Below, piece by piece: positions 7,727-7,806 of a stretch of 64,000 nt of DNA. Every line of letters begins with the position of its first letter. The stretch's first letter is position 1. Below the pieces are notes generated by a model, which was not told the origin of the DNA, made no database searches, and saw nothing but the letters and a program-made list of their open reading frames with translations. The translations under genes were made by a program, and so were the position numbers. The stretch lies in assembly GCF_044324785.1 (NCBI RefSeq), contig NZ_CP172127.1. One strand, given 5' to 3'. The DNA is from Escherichia coli. Lineage in GTDB: Bacteria; Pseudomonadota; Gammaproteobacteria; Enterobacterales; Enterobacteriaceae.

Positions 7727-7806
7727 CTATCTCAAAACTTGCTTTTTTTGAGATAGTTTCTCTTTCCTGCTATACACTATCTCAATATTGCGCTTTTTTG
7801 AGATAA
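7727..7806. promoter_or_regulatory. two tandem inverted repeats (operator-like) immediately upstream of the Fic gene
   Basis: IR1 CTATCTCAAAA-N8-TTTTGAGATAG (about 7727-7756) and IR2 CTATCTCAA-N12-TTGAGATAA (about 7777-7806) share the half-site TATCTCAA; IR2 ends 5 nt before the ATG at 7811. Confidence 0.5.

Follow-up and report, generated by a model that had tools for sequence, protein, structure and literature searches.

The 64,000-nucleotide stretch of the Escherichia coli chromosome analysed here (contig NZ_CP172127.1 of assembly GCF_044324785.1; referred to as the window) carries, between yiaY and aldB, a gene encoding a 431 amino acid class II Fic protein. Two inverted repeats, IR1 and IR2, designated O1 and O2 below, lie directly upstream of its start codon and share the half-site TATCTCAA. 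These are very probably operators of the Fic gene's own promoter, to which dimers of the Fic protein would bind through their winged helices and repress transcription, as judged from the sequence and by analogy with related proteins. The genes and sites of the locus are as follows.

4495-6339: selB
6530-7681: yiaY
7697-7724, plus strand: intrinsic terminator of yiaY, a GC-rich hairpin CGGCTGGCGAGTTGTCAGCCG followed by a T-run, called in a terminator scan; not part of the operator
7725-7758: O1 (IR1), AACTATCTCAAAA-N8-TTTTGAGATAGTT, with core half-sites TATCTCAA at 7728-7735 and TTGAGATA at 7748-7755
7776-7807: O2 (IR2), ACTATCTCAA-N12-TTGAGATAAG, with core half-sites at 7778-7785 and 7798-7805
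7811-9106, plus strand: the Fic gene, assigned from the open reading frame (ORF), the Fic Pfam domain, and the PADLOC SoFic model
9214: ATG of aldB, downstream of the Fic gene

Two palindromes on a predicted promoter

From yiaY towards the Fic gene, the order is the yiaY terminator, O1, a 17-nt stretch, TATACACT (7771-7778), O2, five bases (7806-7810), and the ATG. The arms of O1 are perfect over 13 nt (7725-7737 and 7746-7758) and are separated by 8 nt, while the perfect arms of O2 are 8 nt, TATCTCAA and TTGAGATA, and are separated by 12 nt, giving four TATCTCAA half-sites in total. Read in the same direction, the two units are also 80 % identical over 30 nt (7726-7755 and 7776-7805), a direct repeat with a start-to-start distance of 50. 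The first-pass annotation had described two inverted repeats with a common half-site; both are present, with the amendment that IR1 is longer than described and that the ninth pair of IR2 is mismatched (C7777/A7806). It had also placed the repeats about 50 bp apart, with the second ending about 5 nt before the Fic ATG, which agrees with the 50-bp period and with the 4-5 nt gap between the end of O2 (7805/7806) and the ATG at 7811. Its alternative suggestion, that IR1 might be part of the yiaY terminator, was not borne out. Since yiaY has a terminator of its own, which is kept in Fic-less genomes where IR1 and the Fic gene have been lost, IR1 is not the yiaY terminator.

The half-site is over-represented in the window, with nine copies of TATCTCAA against 1.5 expected, and none of 100 shuffled sequences reached nine. 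When up to three mismatches are allowed, TATCTCAA-N12-TTGAGATA has three matches in the 64 kb (0.12 expected), and the two exact ones are O1 and O2; no third operator site was found within the window searched. The five other copies of TATCTCAA (2890, 16353, 19693, 39935, and 63348) are single and none lies in a palindrome, the nearest candidate among them being 39935-39962, with three mismatches.

The repeated boxes overlap elements that resemble the -35 and -10 hexamers of a promoter for the Fic gene:

7748-7753, plus strand: candidate -35, TTGAGA, within the right arm of O1
7771-7778, plus strand: candidate -10, either TATACA (7771-7776; 17-nt spacer) or TACACT (7773-7778; 19-nt spacer)

Both -10 candidates abut or overlap the left arm of O2. 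Transcription of the Fic gene is predicted to start at approximately 7783-7786, inside O2, and this site would then span the predicted start, a short 5′ untranslated region, and the weak GAGA ribosome-binding region. In loci L083 and L087, a consensus scan calls TTGAGA-18-TATACT, with 10 of 12 matches, at the homologous position; here the TTGAGA is the right arm of O1 and the TATACT leads straight into the ATCTCAA of O2. TATACT is also present in other genera at the position of the E. coli -10 candidate, and some E. coli variants have TATATACT there. Klebsiella and Pectobacterium, which are without O1, have a perfect TTGACA, 17 nt, CAATTT, and then directly ATCTCAAAA, and their TTGACA is at the same distance from O2 as the E. 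coli TTGAGA.

Distribution of the palindromes

Homologues that are 43-76 % identical to the E. coli protein were drawn from unrelated neighbourhoods by exact-protein look-up. These neighbourhoods were a bgl-like operon, a Pseudescherichia/nitrate regulator region, Pantoea, a Salmonella island with AcaB, Photorhabdus/HicAB, Rahnella, Klebsiella, Pectobacterium, and Xenorhabdus, with further contexts containing AbiEi/GST genes or an autotransporter with genes of an integrative and conjugative element. Among the homologues of 63-76 % identity, in at least 10 unrelated contexts, CTATCTCAA-N12-TTGAGATAG occurs at constant distances from the ATG. In the clade of at least 66 % identity, both palindromes are present at constant offsets, with TCTCAA at -80/-81 and -31 and TTGAGA at -62/-63 and -13. 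The search for the half-site upstream of homologous Fic genes, which had been suggested as a check, was therefore strongly positive, with fixed distances to the ATG in unrelated neighbourhoods.

Nearly every homologue retains O2, even at 43-48 % identity, and it is present where O1 is not in L139, L111, Photorhabdus, Rahnella, Klebsiella, Pectobacterium, and Xenorhabdus. Because some homologues retain O2 alone, O2 is considered to be the core site and O1 auxiliary.

Thirteen distinct promoters from differing contexts, belonging to homologues of 66-100 % protein identity, were aligned. The arms average 1.71 bits per column, compared with 0.78 in the spacers and 0.66 between the two sites. There is little or no variation in TATCTCAA and TTGAGATA, with TATC-CAA and TTGAG-TA invariant, and the spacers and inter-site stretch have diverged. 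At the level of sequence, this pattern of arm conservation is the phylogenetic footprint of a putative protein-binding site.

A more distant set was assembled from among the matches listed in a genome scan, comprising 36 loci from many phyla with 31-43 % identity. In this set, palindromes of the form xxTCAA-N10-13-TTGAxx number 15 in the 6.4 kb proximal to the starts and two in the other 230 kb (P ~1e-31). Eleven of the loci have at least one TCAA-type palindrome and four have two. The TCAA-N11-12-TTGA core is kept in more distant homologues, including that of an archaeon, Methanolobus, where there are two copies of CTATCAA-N11-TTGATAG, at about -90 and -42. Differences in the half-site are matched by differences in the recognition helix of the encoded protein: SDNTAR(N/T)DL is found with TATCTCAA, the Pseudomonas helix (A/S)YNTA(A/S) with TATTTCAA or GTCTCAA, and VAYATAR with TATCAA-N11-TTGATA. 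Such a change of half-site with recognition helix is expected if the protein of the cassette itself reads the site.

It is conceivable, although we consider it unlikely, that two-operator self-repression is an ancient design of the whole family of Fic proteins with a winged helix-turn-helix (Fic-wHTH), from the Enterobacterales and Pseudomonas to methanogens, with a specificity code between TCAA half-site and helix and with occupancy of the sites restraining the enzyme. If so, the proximal palindrome would lie on the transcription start and the second about 50 bp upstream on the -35, and operator DNA and the intramolecular inhibitory helix would together take the role of a separate antitoxin. 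Release from the DNA, for instance after phage infection or when the copy number changes, would then couple expression to activity. In a different Fic-wHTH subfamily, of about 349 amino acids and 26-27 % identity, the sequence just before the start codon contains TAATCGGGT as tandem direct repeats, for example GGGTATAATCGGGTATAATCGGGTATGAAATCGG (L043 2890-2991, L047 2790-2892, and L064 2880-2964), suggesting another type of self-operator in this branch.

Public metagenomes were also scanned for CTATCTCAA-N12-TTGAGATAG irrespective of context, giving 108 loci. Of these, 36 are Escherichia yiaY-Fic-aldB loci, in 10 the palindrome is immediately followed by another Fic homologue in the correct orientation, and four have one or more palindromes before a truncated or incomplete Fic start. 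A further 30 are one coding sequence from an abundant human-gut organism, with the palindrome within the first codons, MAISKLQLVEIEF (L097, L109, L115, and some 27 others), and these count as one chance origin. All loci with two copies of the exact pattern are linked to a Fic gene. The pair of palindromes at a fixed distance from the Fic start is therefore specific to this gene family in these comparisons.

Two loci contain decayed cassettes, in which both operators and the -10 are intact (L098, approximately 2672-2960, minus strand; L163, 5146-5485). The Fic frame ends after about 34 codons in L098, where it is followed by a 446 amino acid ORF with an HExxH motif, encoding an unrelated protein, and after about 80 codons in L163. 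In such cassettes the operators may outlive the Fic gene, or may now drive something else. Palindromes with no Fic gene nearby include L096 419-461, L125 and L157 (near cysH and a CRISPR array), and L132 8884, which have A/T-rich inner flanks and lie between convergent genes; in L096 there is a partial extra half-site directly upstream. Such orphans may have arisen by chance as AT-rich hairpins, or may be what is left of lost cassettes.

The Fic protein and its relatives

The catalytic motif HPFRDGNGR (residues 264-272) is invariant in the alignment of 19 homologues and conforms to HPFx[D/E]GN[G/K]R. The inhibitory motif SSQLEG (residues 129-134) conforms to [S/T]xxxE[G/N] and lies N-terminal to the Fic core on the same chain, which places the protein in class II; S129, S130, Q131, L132, E133, and G134 are invariant in 19 homologues. 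The Pfam Fic domain matches with E = 1.7e-19, and the PADLOC SoFic model PDLC03963 with E = 1.3e-41, aligning residues 96-427 with profile positions 30-351 of 361. The first ~95 residues are outside this model and are without a counterpart in the structural neighbours.

8891-9103, plus strand: region encoding the C-terminal winged helix, based on AlphaFold2, Pfam, and Foldseek
8999-9037, plus strand: region encoding the predicted recognition helix, residues 397-409

The E. coli protein is confidently modelled as ending in a classical winged helix. In the AlphaFold2 model, with a mean predicted local distance difference test score of 88.6, there are helices at residues 367-378, 386-393, and 397-409 and wing strands at 413-417 and 423-427, and Pfam gives weak matches to HTH_DeoR and HTH_IclR over residues 376-414. 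The top Foldseek matches are all Fic-wHTH proteins, Coxiella Fic2 (8cil), Dde_2494 (4rgl), SoFic (3eqx), and CccR (7xux), with 17-20 % identity. Those to 8cil, 3eqx, and 7xux align over approximately 350-365 columns; 8cil is the best match (E = 1.2e-11), and 3eqx has a target-normalised TM-score of 0.70.

Autoregulation by a Fic protein with a helix-turn-helix (HTH) is already known from CccR of Yersinia pseudotuberculosis (YPK_0951; PDB 7xux), a class II Fic protein with a C-terminal HTH that represses its own promoter as a dimer (PMC9755527). The evidence there was DNase footprinting, which covered two boxes close to the -35 and -10, together with electrophoretic mobility shift assays, isothermal titration calorimetry, and lacZ fusions (PMC9755527). 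CccR is an effector secreted by a type VI secretion system, and its regulatory and toxic activities are reported to be independent (PMC9755527). Its DNA-binding helices are 70 Å apart in the apo dimer (PMC9755527), which would be close to the 68 Å implied by the 20-bp spacing of the half-sites here. The published CccR site is one 46-bp element with 10-bp boxes that are 26 bp apart, printed as AGATAATCAT and ATGATAATCT (PMC9755527).

The region upstream of cccR in Y. pseudotuberculosis was taken here from the published primers, in which the 27 nt before the ATG are TTTACATGTTTGAGATAATCTAACTTT, with TTTGAGATAATCT 12 nt before the ATG (PMC9755527). TTTACATGTTTGAGATAATCTAACTTT contains TTGAGATAA, the same word as the right arm of O2; the boxes as printed do not exactly match the primer-derived sequence. 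The promoter was therefore read in a 78 % identical orthologue (L204), from a search with CccR residues 54-217 taken from the PDB alignment, in which a 99 % identical match was an internal fragment. The orthologue has three TTGAGAT(A) boxes in the same orientation, at -104, -40, and -18 (L204 1397-1496). Further upstream, at L204 1204-1296, is another set of repeats, TCCACACATA at 21-bp spacing, with one inverted copy.

The two systems differ in several respects. CccR has 380 amino acids, compared with 431 here, including about 95 extra N-terminal residues, and identity in the structural alignment is about 17 %. The single 46-bp element of CccR contrasts with two tandem palindromes of 28-30 bp, 50 bp apart, in E. 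coli. The neighbours of the CccR gene are effector-immunity genes, whereas the E. coli Fic gene is alone between yiaY and aldB.

SoFic of Shewanella oneidensis (SO_4266), from the SoFic/EcSofic family of anti-phage defence proteins, has an inhibitory helix, Fic core, and winged helix, as here, with 17-18 % identity. Its dimer binds the 100 bp upstream of its own start codon, and no operator motif was named (bioRxiv 10.64898/2026.07.09.737422). In the published 300-bp fragment bound by SoFic (Table S2 of bioRxiv 10.64898/2026.07.09.737422) we find five copies of ATGTCGAT or its complement, a different word from that in E. coli, and among them the palindrome ATGTCGAT-TGA-ATCGACAT lies in the 100-bp piece that bound best. 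EcSofic has a small downstream antitoxin gene, AS1, of 47 amino acids, whereas the list of ORFs of at least 40 amino acids shows none of this kind directly downstream of the Fic gene here, unlike such a two-gene module. Coxiella burnetii Fic2 (8cil) is a Fic protein with a DNA-binding HTH, described as an effector with DNA-binding-induced (de)AMPylation that targets histone H3 (PMC10628234). It is 20 % identical to the E. coli protein, and no self-operator is described for it (PMC10628234).

In its mode of working only, and not in family membership, the arrangement also resembles the YefM-YoeB toxin-antitoxin operon, where two adjacent promoter palindromes mediate negative feedback on a growth-inhibiting enzyme (PMC1802561). 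In that case a separate antitoxin binds the DNA, whereas here the enzyme carries its own DNA-binding domain and inhibitory helix.

Proposed autoregulation, alternatives, and loss of the cassette

The suggestion in the first-pass annotation that the palindromes are an autoregulatory operator for the protein's own C-terminal HTH is thus supported, comparatively and by analogy, by the conservation of the arms, the overlap with the promoter, the winged helix, and the precedents of CccR and SoFic. We infer binding by the E. coli Fic protein, repression, and the stoichiometry as follows. Palindromic sites imply a dimer, and in a Fic dimer each C-terminal winged helix would contact one TATCTCAA half-site of the same palindrome; from centre to centre, these half-sites are separated by 20 bp, or about two turns of the DNA (~68 Å). 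A dimer on O1 would cover the -35 hexamer, and a dimer on O2 would cover the -10 end, the transcription start, and the ribosome-binding region. O2 would be bound generally, and O1 also in this clade. Such negative feedback would keep a potentially toxic AMP-transferase low and self-limiting, and the operators, promoter, and gene would make up a single-gene cassette that is both moved and lost as a whole.

The operators, with the predicted promoter and start, would provide a concrete control circuit for an uncharacterised Fic gene. A common DNA word would tie scattered single-gene Fic cassettes to CccR, a relative with demonstrated autoregulation, and the comparison provides operator sequences of a kind left ungeneralised in publications on SoFic and CccR; the architecture in E. 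coli is different, in having two tandem palindromes. A toxin-like enzyme that carries its own repressor function would also be useful to recognize when annotating and cloning SoFic-type defence genes. Literature searches on the yiaY/aldB/Fic locus and on the motif found no publication mentioning either in the library searched.

Several observations weigh against autorepression through these sites. The promoter scan called no promoter in E. coli itself, where the -10 is poor (TATACA or TACACT). The C-terminal domain alone, compared with PDB sequences, has no detectable similarity to the winged helices of CccR or SoFic and gives only marginal matches to winged helices of the TFE type. The boxes of the CccR orthologue are repeated directly and those in E. 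coli in inverted orientation, so the geometry of binding is not simply transferable from CccR. Only 11 of the 36 distant homologues listed have a TCAA-type palindrome. In the metagenome scan, there are about 27 distinct orphan palindromes with no Fic profile match nearby, mostly intergenic and on low-GC contigs; because of these orphan copies, a lone palindrome is not diagnostic.

The Fic protein might bind these sites mainly for a purpose other than repression, with the DNA switching (de)AMPylation, tethering or sequestering the enzyme, or with the protein activating transcription. As the principal role of the sites this is improbable. The DNA-binding-induced (de)AMPylation described for CbFic2, the top structural neighbour (PMC10628234), and the control of toxicity by EcSofic's C-terminal domain are in its favour. 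However, the overlap of the sites with the -35, -10, and predicted start is a classic repressor layout, and CccR, which has the same box, is a repressor with regulatory and toxic activities reported to be independent. Such a role is compatible with autorepression and the two are not exclusive.

That another regulator, encoded by the host, occupies the sites in place of the Fic protein is very improbable. There are orphan palindromes with no Fic gene, but the sites travel with a single-gene cassette across the Enterobacterales, Pseudomonas, other phyla, and an archaeon, and the variant of the half-site follows the cassette's own recognition helix. The sole constant companion of the sites is the Fic gene, which itself encodes a DNA-binding domain, and the relatives CccR and SoFic bind their own promoters.

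It is highly improbable that the palindromes act instead as nucleic acid hairpins, IR1 as a terminator or insulator after yiaY and IR2 as an mRNA hairpin that hides the Fic ribosome-binding site. The predicted RNA folds have energies of -14.1 kcal/mol (z = -5.9) for IR1 and -7.3 kcal/mol for IR2, IR1 is followed in E. coli by TTTCTCTTT and was flagged as terminator-like in the scan, and the right arm of IR2 holds the sole GAGA-type Shine-Dalgarno candidate. Conservation of pairing is not, however, what the alignment shows. Covariation is 0.038, equal to the mean of shuffled alignments (0.038), with 229 out of 500 shuffles as high; 12 of the 25 pairs never vary, and pairing is broken in L166 O1, Pantoea O2, and L178 O1. 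In the left arm the inner A-run does not vary, unlike the stretch with which it would pair. Only three of the 13 pairs in IR1 are G-C, unlike the G+C-rich stem of a terminator, and its T-rich tail is found only in Escherichia; L083, L086, and L087 lack it, and no terminator was called there. There was no Rfam match at E up to 1, and two unrelated hairpin functions would not need one 8-mer four times. In addition, since transcription is predicted to start inside the left arm of IR2, most of that arm would be missing from the mRNA, which could not form the hairpin.

The Fic gene and its operators are present in 1575 of 5426 complete E. coli genomes (~29 %), including O157:H7, and are absent from K-12. 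Of these 5426 genomes, 3162 have the same Fic-less junction, caactatctc|tgtaaccc, and comparison across it defines the missing segment:

7734-9102, plus strand: absent from K-12-type E. coli

On its left, the deletion starts inside the left arm of O1, and on its right it ends just before the Fic stop codon, which stays. Fic-less genomes keep only the 10-nt CAACTATCTC (7724-7733), the start of the O1 left arm, fused to TGTAACCC (9103; L001 2626-2650). Because retention of CAACTATCTC would be an improbable coincidence under insertion, the K-12-type state is most likely a deletion rather than the state before an insertion. Escherichia albertii has yiaY-Fic-aldB at the same locus, which together with the shared junction makes the Fic-less state look like a single ancestral deletion, and K-12-type strains most likely descend from a single deletion of the Fic cassette. 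K-12 is thus a natural null host, in which the 10-nt scar marks the loss. The cassette does occur in many contexts, and the left edge of the deletion is inside O1 with a short TATC microhomology near both edges, but a role of the repeats in mobilising the Fic cassette, as recombination sites or as the termini of a mobile element, can virtually be discarded. They are only 5′ of the gene, with no matching 3′ repeat and no adjacent recombinase at the loci examined; a constant spacing from the ATG and the promoter hexamers is the mark of regulatory sites; and one junction in 3162 genomes is consistent with a single deletion and not with recurrent excision.

The gap between the Fic stop (9106) and the aldB ATG (9214) is 107 nt, and the list of ORFs of at least 40 amino acids contains no separate small ORF confined to it. 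Within this gap, at 9150-9172, is a perfect 9-bp hairpin, GACTGGCGA-AGATT-TCGCCAGTC. Since it is present also in Fic-less genomes (L001 2685-2707), it belongs to the leader or promoter region of aldB and not to the cassette.

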